Sequence record: NC_031103.1
Strand: one strand, 5' to 3'
DNA length: 64,000 nt
Source: Escherichia phage vB_EcoM-UFV13
Below are positions 5,801 through 55,347 of the stretch, piece after piece. The notes beneath the pieces are model-generated. The model ran no database searches and was not told the DNA's origin. It saw only the letters and a list, made by a program, of their open reading frames with translations. Within the stretch, counting starts at the first letter, position 1, and each line of letters starts with the position of its first letter. Both the position numbers and the translations under genes were made by a program.

Positions 5801-6070
5801 TTAATTAAACAGTGGAGCGATGCGTTTCAGAAGAGTAGCAGCACCTTTAGCGAATTTTACATCATGAAAAACAGTTTCTTCTTCCGTTACAACACGAGCT
5901 TTAATGTTTTCACAATCCCAATTTTTACGAACAATCTTCAAAAGCTGCAGTAAATCTTTACATTCAGCAATATCGATAACACATCCACGAGAATCTTCCA
6001 TTATCGCACGATAACCGTAAGCCATACCATAATCGTTGAAAGATTGTTCGATGATAATTAAGTTTTCCAT
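5801..6070 (-). CDS. hypothetical protein
   Basis: Track ORF begins at TTG (6082); ATG at 6070 is preceded by GGAG. Confidence 0.5.
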   Translation of the reverse strand: MENLIIIEQSFNDYGMAYGYRAIMEDSRGCVIDIAECKDLLQLLKIVRKNWDCENIKARVVTEEETVFHDVKFAKGAATLLKRIAPLFN

Positions 6071-6094
6071 TTTATTCTCCAAGTTGTTTTCTAT

Positions 6095-6137
6095 ATCAGT
6101 AGTTGATATTGATATAGTACCATAATCAACTACTGAT
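6095..6137. repeat. 13-bp inverted repeat flanking a promoter -10 element
   Basis: atcagtagttgat / atcaactactgat separated by 17 nt containing TACTAT. Confidence 0.6.
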
Positions 6138-6167
6138 GTATATAGTTTTATGAAAAAATTTTAAACT

Positions 6168-6656
6168 TTATGCATAGAGAGCATTGCTATAGTGTTTAAT
6201 CCAACTTTCAGGAATGACTTTATATGTTCCTAAAAATACCACGTTGTACAACTTAACACCATCTTCTACCCATTGATCTGTAATGTATCCACACATAGCG
6301 CGAGTATAAGCAGCCTTTCCATCATCTTTGATAAATTTAAATTCGCAAGGAGCAATGAACTTAATAGCTTGACCGAGTTTCCACTTAAAGTCTACACCTA
6401 CATGTGAAGTATCAATCGTTTCAATTCCTTTAGCAGGAACAGCTTTCAAAAACGCAGATTCAAGAAATTTCGCACGAACATAGCCAAACTGAGGTTTAGA
6501 CTTTCCATCTTTAGGAATGATACGCACTTTTACTTCAGAATCTTCATCTTTAACGCCATGTTTAAGCTGAATGCTTACAATTTCAACCAATTTTCCTGCT
6601 GCTTTAGAGCGGGATTTATCAGATACACGAGCTAATTCACCAATATTAATAATCAT
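6168..6656 (-). CDS. hypothetical protein (T4 motB size/position)
   Basis: 162-aa ORF; C-terminal domain shared with the next ORF. Confidence 0.5.
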   Translation of the reverse strand: MIINIGELARVSDKSRSKAAGKLVEIVSIQLKHGVKDEDSEVKVRIIPKDGKSKPQFGYVRAKFLESAFLKAVPAKGIETIDTSHVGVDFKWKLGQAIKFIAPCEFKFIKDDGKAAYTRAMCGYITDQWVEDGVKLYNVVFLGTYKVIPESWIKHYSNALYA

Positions 6657-6700
6657 AGTTATCTCTCACTTGTTAAAAAGATTTTATACTCCACAGGACC

Positions 6701-6730
6701 ATTATACTCTGGTCCCAAGAGTTTGTAAAC
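6701..6730 (-). promoter_or_regulatory. early promoter
   Basis: GTTTAC-18-TATAAT on minus strand. Confidence 0.55.
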
Positions 6731-6732
6731 TA

Positions 6733-7266
6733 TTAATTTAAAATAGCTACCACCGCACTACGAGGTACTACACTAAAATCACCTGCATGAACAACGTTCA
6801 GAAGTTCAACACCATCTTCAATCCACTGGTCTGTTACCCAACCACAGACCGAAATAAATGGAGTCTTGATAGCTACCGCATGAGTTAGAAGGTCAGTAGG
6901 ATCGCATTCTTGAAAGAGGATGAACTCTGCTTCATAAACAAGGATTTTCTCTATTTTGTTATTGTCTAAACGACGACCGTGGACAATATAAGATTTAGTA
7001 AACCATTTACTTTTTTCAAAATCTTCAACAATAAATTCGCCTTCGCCAAAAACATCAGTCAGAGTTTTATGGCCGGAAATCAAGGCATTAGTTTTAATTT
7101 CAGGTTCAACCAGTTTGTAGGTTTTGCCGATTTCAATAGCGGTAGTCATAGTAGTTTCCTTAATTTCCAGTGGTTTAACAGGGCATACATAAGTGCTTAC
7201 AACATCAAAATCAATCAGTTTAGCTACTGGATTTGGTGTGTATTCAGGATTATAATTAAATTTCAT
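6733..7266 (-). CDS. hypothetical protein, paralog of 6168..6656 in C-terminal domain
   Basis: C-terminus CGWVTDQWIEDGVELLNVV aligns with CGYITDQWVEDGVKLYNVV. Confidence 0.5.
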   Translation of the reverse strand: MKFNYNPEYTPNPVAKLIDFDVVSTYVCPVKPLEIKETTMTTAIEIGKTYKLVEPEIKTNALISGHKTLTDVFGEGEFIVEDFEKSKWFTKSYIVHGRRLDNNKIEKILVYEAEFILFQECDPTDLLTHAVAIKTPFISVCGWVTDQWIEDGVELLNVVHAGDFSVVPRSAVVAILN

Positions 7267-7268
7267 AA

Positions 7269-7769
7269 TTATCTCATTTCAATAAAATCTACGAGTTCAG
7301 CATGCGATTTGCGGAACATTACTTGGTGCCCACCAATGATAACTTCATCTTCAGGAACTTCGTATACAGCGAGATAAAATCCTTTAGAAGATAATTCTTC
7401 CCGCTCTTCTCGTGTGAACCATCTCATCATATCATACTCACTAGCGAAAGCAAAATGATAAAGAGCTATAAACCATCCTGGAATATGATATTCTACTCCA
7501 ACATAATCTTTCTTGAACTTAGTATTAATTACTATATTAGCGTTTTTAACTAATAGTTTATCTTCGTGTGGTAAAGGAATTCTTTTATTATTATCGCTAT
7601 GATGCATAAAATTAGGTCTGTCATAACCTACGTGTAATAGCCACTCTTCGCTCCATGAATCTATTATACTCCTGTACGGCGTTATTTGAACACAAAGATT
7701 TCGACGTATTGTTATAGCATCTTCATAATCAAGAATACTAAACGATGATTCAACACGATAAATTTTCAT
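7269..7769 (-). CDS. hypothetical protein
   Basis: Track ORF begins at TTG inside promoter; ATG at 7769 preceded by GAGGA. Confidence 0.5.
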   Translation of the reverse strand: MKIYRVESSFSILDYEDAITIRRNLCVQITPYRSIIDSWSEEWLLHVGYDRPNFMHHSDNNKRIPLPHEDKLLVKNANIVINTKFKKDYVGVEYHIPGWFIALYHFAFASEYDMMRWFTREEREELSSKGFYLAVYEVPEDEVIIGGHQVMFRKSHAELVDFIEMR

Positions 7770-7796
7770 TTTATTATCCTCAGTAGCTATGGTGTT

Positions 7797-50262: not shown

Positions 50263-50299
50263 TTTGTGTTCCTCCGTAGTTGATAGTTGTATAGTACCA
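50258..50299 (-). repeat. 42-bp exact direct repeat, copy 2
   Basis: Identical to 25301-25342. Confidence 0.7.
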
Positions 50300-50320
50300 C
50301 AGAGGAACGGTCTTGTAAAC
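50291..50320 (-). promoter_or_regulatory. early promoter with conserved leader cassette
   Basis: GTTTAC-18-TACTAT; leader identical to cassette at 25301-25342. Confidence 0.55.
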
Positions 50321-50322
50321 AA

Positions 50323-50625
50323 CTAAAAGAAACTTCTTTCACAATTTTTTCCACTGAACCATGCGCTCACTGCTTTCTTAGTCTCAGGAGCAGTGTTATC
50401 CATAAACCACTCAAAGGCAGCCTTTTTATGATTCTGGAGGGCTTCTCGGGCTTTAATCTGCTCACGGTCTATTAACACTAACATATGAGCCTTTCTTGTC
50501 ACCAAGGGCTTCTTATGATTCTTGGAGTATTCCCAGTCATTTGTCCAACGCATTGTCGTTGCGAACTGAAATACTGCGTCTTTAATTTTAGTTTCATAAA
50601 TTTCACGAGCCTTTGAGTATAACAT
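50323..50625 (-). CDS. hypothetical protein
   Basis: Track ORF 50323..50637 has N in codon 4; ATG at 50625 preceded by GGAGG. Confidence 0.45.
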   Translation of the reverse strand: MLYSKAREIYETKIKDAVFQFATTMRWTNDWEYSKNHKKPLVTRKAHMLVLIDREQIKAREALQNHKKAAFEWFMDNTAPETKKAVSAWFSGKNCERSFF

Positions 50626-50726
50626 CANTACCTCCATTNACCAGTTTAATTCTANTCATCTTTTTNATGGCAGTCCATATAATCTATTTCTGAACTGCCT
50701 TTTTGTCATAGAAGTCCTCTTATGAA

Positions 50727-51695
50727 TTATTTCAGAAGAGTAACCTCAGCAATTTCTTCCCAACCGTTTTTGTCGGTCATAATAAAGTCAGCAAGATAAA
50801 GTGCAGTACGCAGTGAAACATTGCGTAAACGATTAACATTGACTTTCATCCATGATAATGCTTTATAAGTTTCTTCATCAGAAAGACCGCGCTTTTGCAT
50901 CATGTCAGTTGAAAGAATAACATCTTCAACCCTGACCATAATTTCTTCATTAGTGTGAACACCCAAATCTAAATAAACTGAGCGGGACACTAATGCTTGT
51001 AAATGTGGAGCAAGTTTAGTACCACGGTCTAATTCGCGGTCAATGTCAACGTTTGTGATAAAAACAATCGTTCCTTTAAATTCAAACTCGCGCTCAATGC
51101 CTTTTTCTTCTAAGTAAGAAGATGCAGTGCTCCAGCAGACTTTACGGGTCTCTCCGGTGTCCAGAGCAGCTTTTAGAAGATTAAGAATGTCCATATCAGA
51201 GAAAACATCCACATCATCAATCAAAAGGACAGAATTCTCTTCACGATTATTCCAAAGCTGCTCATAAAGACCAATACCAGAGATTTTACCATTAATGCTT
51301 TTATACTCAATGTATCCAATATCATTTGCTTTATTTAAAGCTTTATCTAAAGAATACGTTTTACCAATACCTGCTGCACCAGAGATAATTAATGAACGAA
51401 TGTTTCCGTTAATAATACCATTCGTCATCATTCCCATAACATTAAATCTTTTATTAATGCGGGTTTTCATATCTTCATACGATTCTTTAACTTCTTCAAC
51501 TTTTACACCATCATATGAAATGTCTGATTTGTAAACCCAAACACCGCGACGTTTACCGTCAATTTCAACAAAAACTTTACCATCTCCTTGTGCATCTACC
51601 GGAGCATTATCTGGGAACCACTCACCTAAGAGTTCAAAAGTTCCAGAGATTTCTTTACCGAAGTAGATACCCTTATTGATAGTTACAGTTTTCAT
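50727..51695 (-). CDS. P-loop NTPase (AAA-like ATPase)
   Basis: ATG at 51695 (MKTVTINKG...); Walker A GAAGIGKTYS, Walker B VLLIDDVD. Confidence 0.6.
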   Translation of the reverse strand: MKTVTINKGIYFGKEISGTFELLGEWFPDNAPVDAQGDGKVFVEIDGKRRGVWVYKSDISYDGVKVEEVKESYEDMKTRINKRFNVMGMMTNGIINGNIRSLIISGAAGIGKTYSLDKALNKANDIGYIEYKSINGKISGIGLYEQLWNNREENSVLLIDDVDVFSDMDILNLLKAALDTGETRKVCWSTASSYLEEKGIEREFEFKGTIVFITNVDIDRELDRGTKLAPHLQALVSRSVYLDLGVHTNEEIMVRVEDVILSTDMMQKRGLSDEETYKALSWMKVNVNRLRNVSLRTALYLADFIMTDKNGWEEIAEVTLLK

Positions 51696-51729
51696 TTTAT
51701 TCTCCAAATCCGTATCAGTTGATAGTTGT

Positions 51730-51759
51730 ATAGTACCATAAAGCTTTATGCTTGTAAAC
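51730..51759 (-). promoter_or_regulatory. early promoter upstream of P-loop ATPase gene
   Basis: GTTTAC-18-TACTAT. Confidence 0.55.
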
Positions 51760-51790
51760 TGTTTTGTGAAAAAATTTTTGAAATAAAAAA

Positions 51791-51808
51791 GGGAGCCCGA
51801 AGGCTCCC
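51791..51808 (-). terminator. CUUCGG-type RNA hairpin between NTase and ATPase genes
   Basis: gggagcc-cgaa-ggctccc. Confidence 0.6.
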
Positions 51809-51810
51809 TA

Positions 51811-52824
51811 TCATTTATAATAACTTCGGTGGTTTTCAAGATAAACCCTCTCAAGGAAGTCATCCCAGAAACCCATGTCTACTTTTTGCTGCATACCGTT
51901 CTTAGAAGCTTCAGTAGATGCTGCTTCTACTTGATCGACCACATCTTCCAAAAACTCTTGAACCGTTTTAAATGGATGTTTACCCAACTTCACGTCGAGA
52001 ATAAATGGAGCGTCTTGAAGTGGATAAACCAAGTCACCAGTTTTGTAAATTTCCAATAGTTGGAGTCCACCACGGCAAGCATGACTCAGAGCTTTCCAGT
52101 CAATACCTTCATTGGCTTCGGCCTTACGAGCACGTTCACCATATTCAGCATCTAATTTGTTCAGTGACTGCTTAAGCTCAATAAGAGAAAGCGTTGTCTG
52201 ATATTTACGACCCAACACAGTGTAGAACGTTTGTGGGCCTGTTTTCTCATGATTATGGAACACCCATTCACAGAATTCGTTTTCTGGAAGACGATGCTTA
52301 ATATCTTCAACTTTAGTACGACGCTGCTTAATAGAACCATCTTCTTGGTAATCAACCCATTGCTCGGGGATTTGATTAACTACTTTCAATACATCACGTA
52401 ATGCAGCCAAACGAGAACCCTTGACACCGTATTTAGAAGCTTGCTTGCGGACATATCCTAAATATGATTTCATGTTAGTCGTATAAAAACGAGAACGGTT
52501 GTCTTGAATAAACTTCCACACATCAGGCAAATCAGATTTAACCACTAGCTCAGGTGGAGTGTGAAGCATATCCAACGCTACAGTTTCACCATCTGCTGCC
52601 AATTTAAAGAAATATTTAAGACTGTATAGTTCATGGTCAATATCATCTTTAGTGTTTTTAGATGATGTATTGTTAGTGTTTTTACTCATATGCTCTTTAA
52701 CATTTCCGATAAGAATATCGCGAGCAGGAGGAACAAAGATTTCTTTAAAATCTACATCAGATTCTGGAGTAGAAGTTCCATAAAGATGACTACCAAAATA
52801 GCTTTTCATTACTGTTTTCATCAT
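51811..52824 (-). CDS. nucleotidyltransferase-fold protein (Pol-beta/minimal NTase superfamily)
   Basis: N-terminal GSHLYGTSTPESDVDF = G-S-x4-G-x5-S-D-x-D signature. Confidence 0.6.
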   Translation of the reverse strand: MMKTVMKSYFGSHLYGTSTPESDVDFKEIFVPPARDILIGNVKEHMSKNTNNTSSKNTKDDIDHELYSLKYFFKLAADGETVALDMLHTPPELVVKSDLPDVWKFIQDNRSRFYTTNMKSYLGYVRKQASKYGVKGSRLAALRDVLKVVNQIPEQWVDYQEDGSIKQRRTKVEDIKHRLPENEFCEWVFHNHEKTGPQTFYTVLGRKYQTTLSLIELKQSLNKLDAEYGERARKAEANEGIDWKALSHACRGGLQLLEIYKTGDLVYPLQDAPFILDVKLGKHPFKTVQEFLEDVVDQVEAASTEASKNGMQQKVDMGFWDDFLERVYLENHRSYYK

Positions 52825-53282
52825 TCAGCCTTATATTCAATAACAGGACATACTTTAGCTTTACGGGCTTTTAAAAATTCGACGATAATAGATTTCTTGG
52901 GTTGAATAGGAGGTAAACCTTTATACGCCCTATCAATATTTTCTACATGTAAAGCATAATCCTTTTTCCATTTATAATCTTTATATTTTTCATGCAGTTG
53001 TGCAGGAATAACAAATGAACCAATAATAAGTAAAACAAGCAAAATGGCAAGTATAAATGCTGATGGAATAAGAGTCCATAAACTACCAAAAATAAGCCAT
53101 TTCTGCATGATTTCTGCGCAGATAATAGTTAGACCTGCGAGTATAGTACATCCGAAAAAAGAAACGAAAAATGTAGGAATAACAACAGACCAAAAATATG
53201 CACACAGTGTCTTAGGTCGTTTCCATTCATCATTAAACATTTTGAATAATTTATAGTGCCAAGAGTTTTCATTAATAATCAT
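52821..53282 (-). CDS. membrane protein
   Basis: 153 aa; multiple hydrophobic helices. Confidence 0.5.
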   Translation of the reverse strand: MIINENSWHYKLFKMFNDEWKRPKTLCAYFWSVVIPTFFVSFFGCTILAGLTIICAEIMQKWLIFGSLWTLIPSAFILAILLVLLIIGSFVIPAQLHEKYKDYKWKKDYALHVENIDRAYKGLPPIQPKKSIIVEFLKARKAKVCPVIEYKAE

Positions 53283-53284
53283 AA

Positions 53285-53806
53285 TTATCCTTTCATTGAA
53301 GGTGTAACAGTTGTTAAATACTTAATCATAGCTTCAGCTTCTGATTTTGATAATGAAATTTCTCCATTGTTTTGACGAATAGAAATAAAATCCGGATGAC
53401 GGTCACCACCAGCTTTTAAAATACACATATAAGTATCAGTTTCATCTTCAATATCTGAAATGATTGAAGCAGTTCCGCATGAATGTGGTTTTTGATAAAT
53501 CAATGCAGCTTTTCTTCCACCGTTTGACTGTTCATAAACTTTTAACACATCAAACAAATCACTTCTTTTATCAATAGCTAAGATGTTGTTTTCATCTTCA
53601 ATGTTAAATCCTTCGGATACTTCATAAAGTGTCACCCATAAATCACCGATGTCAATAACAGCATTTCCTTTTCCACGACTTTCAAGAATATGACAAATTT
53701 TCTTGATTTCGTCATAACTCATTTTAATAATATCATCTCCTTGAATAAGGAAGATGTCATTTTTAAATTTAACGCGAATTAAACCACTTCCACTTGAAAT
53801 AAACAT
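53285..53806 (-). CDS. hypothetical protein, tandem paralog
   Basis: C-terminus resembles that of next ORF. Confidence 0.5.
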   Translation of the reverse strand: MFISSGSGLIRVKFKNDIFLIQGDDIIKMSYDEIKKICHILESRGKGNAVIDIGDLWVTLYEVSEGFNIEDENNILAIDKRSDLFDVLKVYEQSNGGRKAALIYQKPHSCGTASIISDIEDETDTYMCILKAGGDRHPDFISIRQNNGEISLSKSEAEAMIKYLTTVTPSMKG

Positions 53807-53812
53807 ATTTCC

Positions 53813-54370
53813 TCACTTTGAAATCATAGTTGGAATGACAGAATCAAGATAAGTCTTTAGCGCAATGGCTTCGTCTTTGGTAAATGTGACAATATGTGAT
53901 CGAAAATCGTCAATTTGGCGAATAGTTAAGACATCTCCCTCTTCATAACATTTTGATACATTTAAAAGAGTTTCATCATTCTGATTGCAATCGTTAGTAA
54001 TAATAGCATTGCAATTTTTGAGCCATTTTAAACTATGTTTTCTTTCATTAGAATAATAAAAATATTTAATCTTAGCTATAAAACTATCCCAATGAATAAC
54101 TGATAAACACATTGACTCACTTTTAATATTAAATCCTGGGCATGAAGAATAAAAATGAATTTTGTGCTCATCATTGATGCTTACTATTTTATCAGTATAA
54201 GGATATTCAATTTGGGTTAAATGAATGATTTCACTAGGCGTAAAATACAGCATATCGTCTTCTTGCGTCAAACGATACATGTTATTTACTTTTTCTATAG
54301 CCAATTCACCAAAAAGCGGACTAACTTCTAATACTAATCGTTTCATATTGATTCTCTTCGACTCACTCAT
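53813..54370 (-). CDS. hypothetical protein, tandem paralog
   Basis: 185 aa. Confidence 0.5.
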   Translation of the reverse strand: MSESKRINMKRLVLEVSPLFGELAIEKVNNMYRLTQEDDMLYFTPSEIIHLTQIEYPYTDKIVSINDEHKIHFYSSCPGFNIKSESMCLSVIHWDSFIAKIKYFYYSNERKHSLKWLKNCNAIITNDCNQNDETLLNVSKCYEEGDVLTIRQIDDFRSHIVTFTKDEAIALKTYLDSVIPTMISK

Positions 54371-54505
54371 AATTACATACTCCTTTGAATAATATCAATA
54401 ATGTTGTTCACCAGATTATAAGTAAACATCGGGTGATAATATTGAATCATCACATACACAACAAACAAAATTTTCATTCTCTTCTCCTTGGCAGTTGACA
54501 AGATT

Positions 54506-54535
54506 ACTATACCATAACCTTGCCAACTTGTAAAC
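54506..54535 (-). promoter_or_regulatory. early promoter
   Basis: GTTTAC-18-TATAGT. Confidence 0.45.
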
Positions 54536-54537
54536 CA

Positions 54538-54711
54538 TTAAATGACGTTTTCAATAAAATTCTGAAGCTTTGTGTGAGCATCAACCATGATTTTCATTTC
54601 TTCCTTTGCGAAAGCTGTACCTCTTTCTCGAGCAGAATACTCATAGTCAGAAACTGCATTAGCATATTCTTCAATTAGCTTCATTAAAAACATCTGCTTT
54701 TCAGTTTTCAT
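54538..54711 (-). CDS. hypothetical small protein
   Basis: 57 aa hand-translated. Confidence 0.35.
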   Translation of the reverse strand: MKTEKQMFLMKLIEEYANAVSDYEYSARERGTAFAKEEMKIMVDAHTKLQNFIENVI

Positions 54712-55317: not shown

Positions 55318-55347
55318 ATAGTATCACAGCCCAAACGGAAAGTAAAC
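55318..55347 (-). promoter_or_regulatory. early promoter
   Basis: GTTTAC-18-TACTAT downstream of hairpin. Confidence 0.55.

Follow-up and report, generated by a model that had tools for sequence, protein, structure and literature searches.

Adjacent early genes nrdC.11 and nrdC.10 of a T4-type phage: a long RlaP-type nucleotidyltransferase with a possible role in tRNA repair and an orphan AAA+ ATPase

The nucleotidyltransferase gene and the ATPase gene lying side by side in the Escherichia phage vB_EcoM-UFV13 are the catalogued T4 genes nrdC.11 and nrdC.10, and they are neighbors through shared ancestral gene order, not a working pair. We propose that they are two independent early genes and that NrdC.11 may take part in tRNA repair, together with T4 Pnk and Rnl1, by adding nucleotides at the 3′ ends of RNA. 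This reading, which draws on family membership and gene context, is given a probability of roughly 0.55. Both genes are known and named, and the family assignment of nrdC.11 and the mechanistic prediction that goes with it are already in print. The idea that tRNA ends are rebuilt by such enzymes has also been published (PMC7824862, PMC12776372) and therefore no new concept is introduced here. What we add is that the adjacent ATPase is not a partner of NrdC.11, and that in bacteria the NrdC.11 type has RNA-repair enzymes as its recurrent partners, along with a second RlaP of the canonical kind.

The window (the whole 64,000-nucleotide stretch of NC_031103.1 that was analyzed) is a segment of a Tequatrovirus (T4-type) genome, and the region of the two genes matched 794 phage records, the top ones at 97-98% nucleotide identity. 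Both ORFs described in the first-pass annotation are real and lie on the minus strand. The same annotation had supposed that homologs might exist in T4 as unnamed ORFs. The homologs do exist, but they bear names: at the amino acid level, ORF 51811..52824 is 99% identical to T4 NrdC.11 (NP_049709) and ORF 50727..51695 is 99% identical to T4 NrdC.10 (NP_049708). In 2006 the former was assigned to the nucleotidyltransferases (COG3541) and the latter to the AAA proteins (PMC1524935). T4 tolerates deletion of the segment nrdC.11-mobD.3, so nrdC.11 is dispensable (PMC9825161). A literature search under alternative gene and protein names for the two returned nothing relevant. The order and spacing of nrdC.11 and nrdC.10 are identical in T4, where they are flanked by the nrdC.1-9 block on one side and mobD/rI on the other; in the UFV13 window, the position ahead of nrdC.11 that the homing endonuclease mobD holds in T4 is taken by a membrane ORF. 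The features of the region are as follows.

50727..51695, minus strand: nrdC.10 coding sequence, 322 aa; AAA+ ATPase, residues 1-62 of which form an N-terminal beta domain
51705..51702, minus strand: ribosome-binding site of nrdC.10, GGAG ahead of the ATG
51730..51759, minus strand: T4 early-type promoter of nrdC.10, GTTTAC ... TGGTACTAT
51784..51809, minus strand: intrinsic terminator, with an 8-bp G+C-rich stem and UUCG loop (51809..51790), then U6 (51789..51784)
51811..52824, minus strand: nrdC.11 coding sequence, 337 aa; RlaP-type Pol-beta nucleotidyltransferase
52821..53282, minus strand: predicted membrane ORF of 153 aa; its stop codon and the start of nrdC.11 overlap (translational coupling)
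54506..54535, minus strand: nearest early-type promoter upstream of nrdC.11 (pattern match), the probable start of the unit ending with nrdC.11

The gene models differ only slightly from those of T4. The T4 annotation starts nrdC.11 at the second ATG, giving 336 aa versus 337 aa here, and the last few residues of NrdC.10 are unlike those of T4 (322 aa here, 325 aa in T4). A 378-aa version of the nrdC.10 ORF was rejected as an over-extension, the ATG at 51695 and the GGAG 6 nt upstream of it being in agreement with the T4 annotation.

The CUUCGG hairpin that had been reported to separate the two genes is found at 51809..51784. It reads AGGGAGCC-UUCG-GGCUCCCU followed by U6, begins 2 nt past the nrdC.11 stop codon and has a folding energy of -16.4 kcal/mol (z -3.7). 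Thirty bases beyond the hairpin, at 51759..51730, lies GTTTACAAGCATAAAGCTTTATGGTACTAT, which reads GTTTACA-N17-(TGG)TACTAT. This promoter makes nrdC.10 the start of a new early transcription unit. It conforms to the pattern GTTTAC-N16-19-TANNNT, which, counted across the window, has 26 matches (3.5 expected), 23 of which are on the minus strand. An early promoter had been claimed for each gene, and the claim holds for nrdC.10 but not for nrdC.11, the ATG of which overlaps the TGA of the membrane ORF. Since there is zero intergenic space in front of nrdC.11 and the nearest promoter is at 54535..54506, nrdC.11 is most likely the final gene of a transcription unit of ~2.7 kb terminated by the hairpin. 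An Rfam scan of 50300..54600 yielded chance-level matches only.

Residues 11-26 of NrdC.11, GSHLYGTSTPESDVDF, form a Pol-beta nucleotidyltransferase signature, and G11, S12, D23, D25 and D63 are invariant among 55 homologs at 34-88% identity. NrdC.10 has a Walker A motif, GAAGIGKTYS, and a Walker B motif, VLLIDDVD. The signatures first noticed in both proteins are thus confirmed, and their residues are invariant or nearly so in the family alignments; therefore, they are no chance motifs. In the AF2 model of NrdC.11, built from the 55 sequences and with a pLDDT of 92, residues 1-100 form a nucleotidyltransferase core, 119-151 a long helix, 155-209 a beta insertion and 214-336 a helical bundle. 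The motif is accordingly placed inside a nucleotidyltransferase core, and by this prediction NrdC.11 has a nucleotidyltransferase fold with intact catalytic residues.

Several profile comparisons place this protein within a family. NrdC.11 matches phrog_388, "nucleotidyltransferase", with an E-value of 8e-137, and it matches the Pfam RlaP family (PF10127) with 44.3 bits, the cut-off (gathering score) being 23 (E 2.4e-11). The Pfam match spans only residues 7-135, corresponding to model positions 23-142 of 249. T4 NrdC.11 has itself been explicitly placed in PF10127, in SSN cluster 5, with the label "of unknown function" (PMC12776372). When 1.8 billion cluster representatives were searched exhaustively, 3,421 clusters contained relatives of NrdC.11, 827 of them with E < 1e-30. 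The protein shares with the RlaPs of Pseudomonas (PfRlaP and PaRlaP) a Pol-beta core with GS and three Asp, and its AF2 model has a like overall layout, an N-terminal nucleotidyltransferase followed by a C-terminal helical domain. It is about 70 aa longer than the characterized RlaPs, with the beta insertion at about residues 155-209, and its N-terminal half alone fits the Pfam model, the relation to the Pseudomonas type being distant. When the NrdC.11 profile was compared with 17 canonical RlaPs by hhalign, the nucleotidyltransferase core alone was aligned (80 columns, probability 45%), a likeness so restricted that it speaks against carrying the RNA-repair function of RlaP over to NrdC.11. 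On these data, NrdC.11 belongs with the Pol-beta nucleotidyltransferases of the RlaP group, as a long and divergent member.

The first-pass annotation saw nothing to indicate the substrate of the nucleotidyltransferase. The substrate is less open than that, given that the RlaP family is tied to RNA repair both in the literature and by bacterial gene contexts. According to PMC7824862, which cites Burroughs and Aravind 2016, RlaP owes its name to the RNA ligases with which it is associated, and its predicted task is to put back, ahead of ligation, nucleotides that have been removed from cleaved RNA by, for instance, RloC. In a preprint of December 2025 (PMC12776372), PfRlaP and PaRlaP, from P. 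fluorescens and P. aeruginosa, are reported to add 1-2 NMP onto the 3′-OH of RNA in a Mn2+-dependent manner. Their preferred substrate in a cleaved-tRNA mimic is the 5′ half, and tRNA that lacked one nucleotide is better aminoacylated after repair with them; DNA was not extended by them and proteins were not labeled. RloC excises the wobble nucleotide, and it was proposed in 2008 that this lesion would hamper phage tRNA repair (PMC2610378).

The bacterial relatives of NrdC.11 point in the same direction. One genome of each prokaryotic species was scanned, which gave 156 encoded relatives. The best 80 of the 156, all full-length at 32-54% identity and many on large chromosomal contigs, were taken; the neighbors within 5 kb were clustered and their representatives checked against Pfam. 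RtcB lies within this distance of the NrdC.11-type gene in 10 of the 80 loci, Hen1 in 7, Pnkp in 6 and Ro60/TROVE in 5, and at least one of these is present in 17/80. Canonical bacterial RlaPs are likewise tied to RtcB and to Pnkp/Hen1 operons. One example is an independently annotated plasmid operon of Asticcacaulis, Hen1 - Pnkp - NrdC.11-type - second nucleotidyltransferase, in which the NrdC.11-type protein is 35% identical to NrdC.11 over 324 residues and the second nucleotidyltransferase is a canonical RlaP (full-length match to PF10127, 236 bits). This operon was reached through a plasmid search in which NrdC.11 had 16 matches and NrdC.10 one weak partial match. NrdC.11 belongs, then, to a distinct long branch of the group, a branch itself linked to RNA repair.

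From these contexts, a sequence of events may be proposed for T4-type phages. An RloC-type anticodon nuclease of the host would cut and trim the anticodon loop of a tRNA. NrdC.11 would add one or a few nucleotides to the 3′-OH of the damaged RNA, likely the 5′ tRNA half, and T4 Pnk and Rnl1 (end healing, sealing) could then religate a full-length tRNA. If true, NrdC.11 would supply a third activity, so far missing, to the classic tRNA-repair pathway in which T4 uses Pnk and Rnl1, and there would be an answer to the question of how phages might cope with RloC-type nucleases, which were held to defeat simple religation. In a sequence-clustering survey of the distant viral NrdC.11 loci, no recurrent neighbor and no linkage to an RNA ligase or kinase was seen, which tells against a role in RNA repair, as does the small number of loci with adjacent tRNA genes. 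Such genes are present in 5/36 scanned loci and are near NrdC.11 only in DSS3P8, where it is inside an 18-gene tRNA cluster, and in locus L073, where the distance is ~0.7 kb; an association of NrdC.11 with tRNA genes, close by in these two cases only, was rejected as anecdotal.

Of the 70 bacterial loci with sufficient flanking sequence, 24 have a canonical RlaP gene directly downstream of the NrdC.11-type gene, on the same strand and 3-310 bp off. Because the two types co-occur, their chemistry may not be identical, and the tandem suggests a different, non-redundant activity for the NrdC.11 type. It is possible, though on balance doubtful, that the long type is functionally distinct from canonical RlaP in a two-enzyme restoration of nucleotides, by another nucleotide or end specificity or as part of a heterodimer, and that T4-type phages kept the long type alone, with Pnk and Rnl1, as a counter to RloC and other anticodon nucleases that excise nucleotides. 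Among phages, canonical RlaP was found in 80 records, most of them from jumbo phages of Pseudomonas, Brevundimonas, Caulobacter and Burkholderia; Escherichia phages are absent from these 80, and no canonical RlaP was found in the window or in any viral NrdC.11 locus. The main text of the RlaP preprint (PMC12776372) does not describe the tandem arrangement, and we consider the tandem in bacterial RNA-repair loci a point worth following.

Turning to the ATPase, 1,311 phage records contain homologs of NrdC.10. In an alignment of 40 homologs at 55-89% identity, G106, G109, G111 and K112 of Walker A and D160 and D161 of Walker B are invariant, and N215 (sensor 1), S237-R238-S239 and R291/R296 are conserved; the Walker B motif has DD, not DE. 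With its core and lid fold, Walker A, Walker B, sensor 1, Arg finger and sensor 2, NrdC.10 has the full set of AAA+ features. The alpha-beta-alpha core and lid are common to the MoxR (NorQ/CbbQ), sigma-54 activator, DnaA/ORC and RFC groups, and like these groups NrdC.10 has Walker A and B, sensor 1, an Arg-finger-like SRS and sensor 2. The SRS and NVSLRTAL blocks seem similar to two motifs of DnaA/Hda/RFC-type proteins, box VII and sensor 2. In distant homologs the match begins near residue 65-80, and therefore the N-terminal domain is replaced there. We regard NrdC.10 as an orphan AAA+ ATPase whose N-terminal domain varies; made from its own promoter as a separate protein, it would probably use this domain to pick the target for the ATPase core. 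It is unlikely, though conceivable, that NrdC.10 serves DNA metabolism, perhaps as a loader or an initiator-like switch ATPase, and is unrelated to RNA repair.

Like NrdC.11, the kanamycin, lincosamide and streptomycin nucleotidyltransferases and the MNT-HEPN modules consist of a nucleotidyltransferase domain followed by a HEPN/KNTase_C-like helical bundle. It is quite improbable that NrdC.11 nucleotidylates a protein or a small molecule, in the manner of the MntA antitoxin or of the aminoglycoside and lincosamide enzymes, and so inactivates a host toxin or metabolite. NCBIfam returned sub-threshold MntA and Hda matches only, and the score of NrdC.11 against the MntA equivalog NF047752 is 13.2 bits, with a cut-off of 60, and is confined to the GS/DxD motif. 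No HEPN R-x4-6-H was seen by eye in the conserved DWKAxSHAxR block, and the sequence-clustering survey of viral loci gave no recurrent neighbor as a candidate MntA-type partner. Moreover, the Pfam family and the bacterial contexts favor RNA repair, and the RlaPs tested so far left proteins unlabeled (PMC12776372).

The first-pass annotation likened the two genes to the enzymatic cores of nucleotide-signaling immunity and counter-immunity systems. On that reading, a signal would be produced or degraded by the nucleotidyltransferase, with the ATPase controlling or carrying out the response. Both genes are early-expressed members of an accessory block, and their linkage extends beyond T4 itself. 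Among 78 IMG/VR loci with an NrdC.11 homolog, viewed up to 10 kb on each side, NrdC.10 is present in 35, spanning 52-99% NrdC.11 identity, and is always downstream and on the same strand. The gaps in these 35 loci range from 112 to 2,290 bp, and other ORFs often intervene. In the other 43 loci, more than half of the sample and including relatives at 82% identity, NrdC.10 is missing within 10 kb. Where NrdC.11 identity falls below 50% (21 viral loci), it is never present, and it is not found within 6 kb in two annotated phage records, those of the Vibrio phage ValKK3 and of DSS3P8 (NrdC.11 at ~30% identity). Seen from the other side, NrdC.11 is near NrdC.10 in 9 of 43 NrdC.10 loci, only the closest ones, and 34 are without it. 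In one phage contig of 183 kb both genes are present ~40 kb apart (loci L059 and L093), and the two are unequally distributed among complete phage records, with NrdC.11 versus NrdC.10 counts of 286 versus 149 in Klebsiella phages and 59 versus 121 in Vibrio phages. No NrdC.10 homolog was found in the 80 bacterial NrdC.11-type loci. The unrelated rI and upstream membrane ORF co-occur with NrdC.11 more often than NrdC.10 does (52, 44 and 35 loci, respectively), and therefore the linkage reflects general conservation of gene order among T4 relatives. An obligate nucleotidyltransferase-ATPase module would show co-inheritance and co-transcription across lineages; here co-occurrence is lost outside the close T4 relatives and a terminator and a separate promoter stand between the genes, so that a functional module is not supported. 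As for signaling, PADLOC gave zero matches, no cGAS- or CD-NTase-like protein is among the structural matches listed for NrdC.11, and neither a CD-NTase fold or profile nor a linked effector was found. A two-component module of this kind is very unlikely.

Least probable of all is that NrdC.11 acts like HalB, its best structural match (9dbh, 15% identity), as a template-independent DNA oligonucleotide synthase, making for example an oligo-dA that holds a Hailong-type DNA-gated channel shut, or another decoy polymer: that the top match makes DNA does count against the RNA-repair reading, but searches of the PDB sequences with NrdC.11, NrdC.10 and the NrdC.11 profile gave nothing significant, the profile matched no HalB entry, the HalA channel gene that adjoins HalB is absent at nrdC.11, and the HalB product is a protein-primed oligo-dA belonging to a host defense system.

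Finally, the surroundings of the NrdC.10 family were surveyed. Sequence clustering of the neighbors of distant homologs revealed no recurrent family, a Pfam survey of 132 ORFs near them found nothing recurrent except adenylosuccinate synthetase in 3, and a BFVD search with NrdC.10 returned only uncharacterized phage AAA+ proteins. One distant homolog, gp32 of Roseobacter phage RDJL Phi 1 (33% identity, E 1e-48), sits among polymerase, helicase and exonuclease genes, a single case.

In bacteria, the long NrdC.11-type nucleotidyltransferase gene is directly followed on its 3′ side by a canonical RlaP gene in 24 of 70 loci (among L126-L206), and some of these tandem genes lie within Hen1-Pnkp or RtcB operons. 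Profile comparison shows that the nucleotidyltransferase core is the sole part common to the long NrdC.11 type and canonical RlaP. One example of the tandem is the following:

L206 (bacterial locus), 6001-7790: long NrdC.11-type nucleotidyltransferase gene followed by canonical RlaP gene

Among viruses, a predicted membrane protein (153 aa in the window) accompanies NrdC.11 in 44 loci; NrdC.10 accompanies NrdC.11 in fewer. In the window, the corresponding gene is translationally coupled to nrdC.11, whereas in T4 the same site is held by the homing endonuclease mobD:

52821-53282, minus strand: gene for the 153-aa predicted membrane protein

In Roseobacter phage DSS3P8, the NrdC.11 homolog is surrounded by clustered RNA genes, which ARAGORN calls as 17 tRNA genes and one tmRNA-like gene (L004 2477-12806). 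A DUF2493 gene is found near the NrdC.11 homolog both in DSS3P8 and in Vibrio phage ValKK3 (L003).

Over the whole window, the T4 early-promoter pattern GTTTAC-N16-19-TANNNT has 26 matches, against 3.5 expected, and 23 of the 26 are on the minus strand. The matches serve as a usable map of the early transcription units in the window. Examples of the matches are:

50320..50291: early-promoter pattern match
51759..51730: early-promoter pattern match
54535..54506: early-promoter pattern match
55347..55318: early-promoter pattern match

Ambiguous bases (N) are present at about 50629, 50640, 50656 and 50667, around the start of nrdC.9 and in the nrdC.10/nrdC.9 spacer, and they put an X into the translation of ORF 50323..50637. 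Residue 101 of the T4 reference NrdC.11 is also X.

A radical-SAM protein that by eye resembles QueE is encoded about 1.8 kb from the distant NrdC.10 homologs in four loci (L094, L115, L123 and L124), and adenylosuccinate synthetase lies beside such homologs in 3 other loci. Both neighbours probably reflect coincidence within accessory regions. In many GenBank/UniRef records, the NrdC.10 and NrdC.11 homologs are labelled "thioredoxin", and neighbours [quoted passage not shown]. These labels look like the gene names nrdC.x and mobD.x spreading through annotation rather than homology. Finally, two NrdC.10 fragments among the database matches (P0126 and P0205; 100% and 87% identical) are filed under Enterococcus faecalis and Escherichia coli, probably representing phage contamination or phage contigs inside bacterial assemblies.
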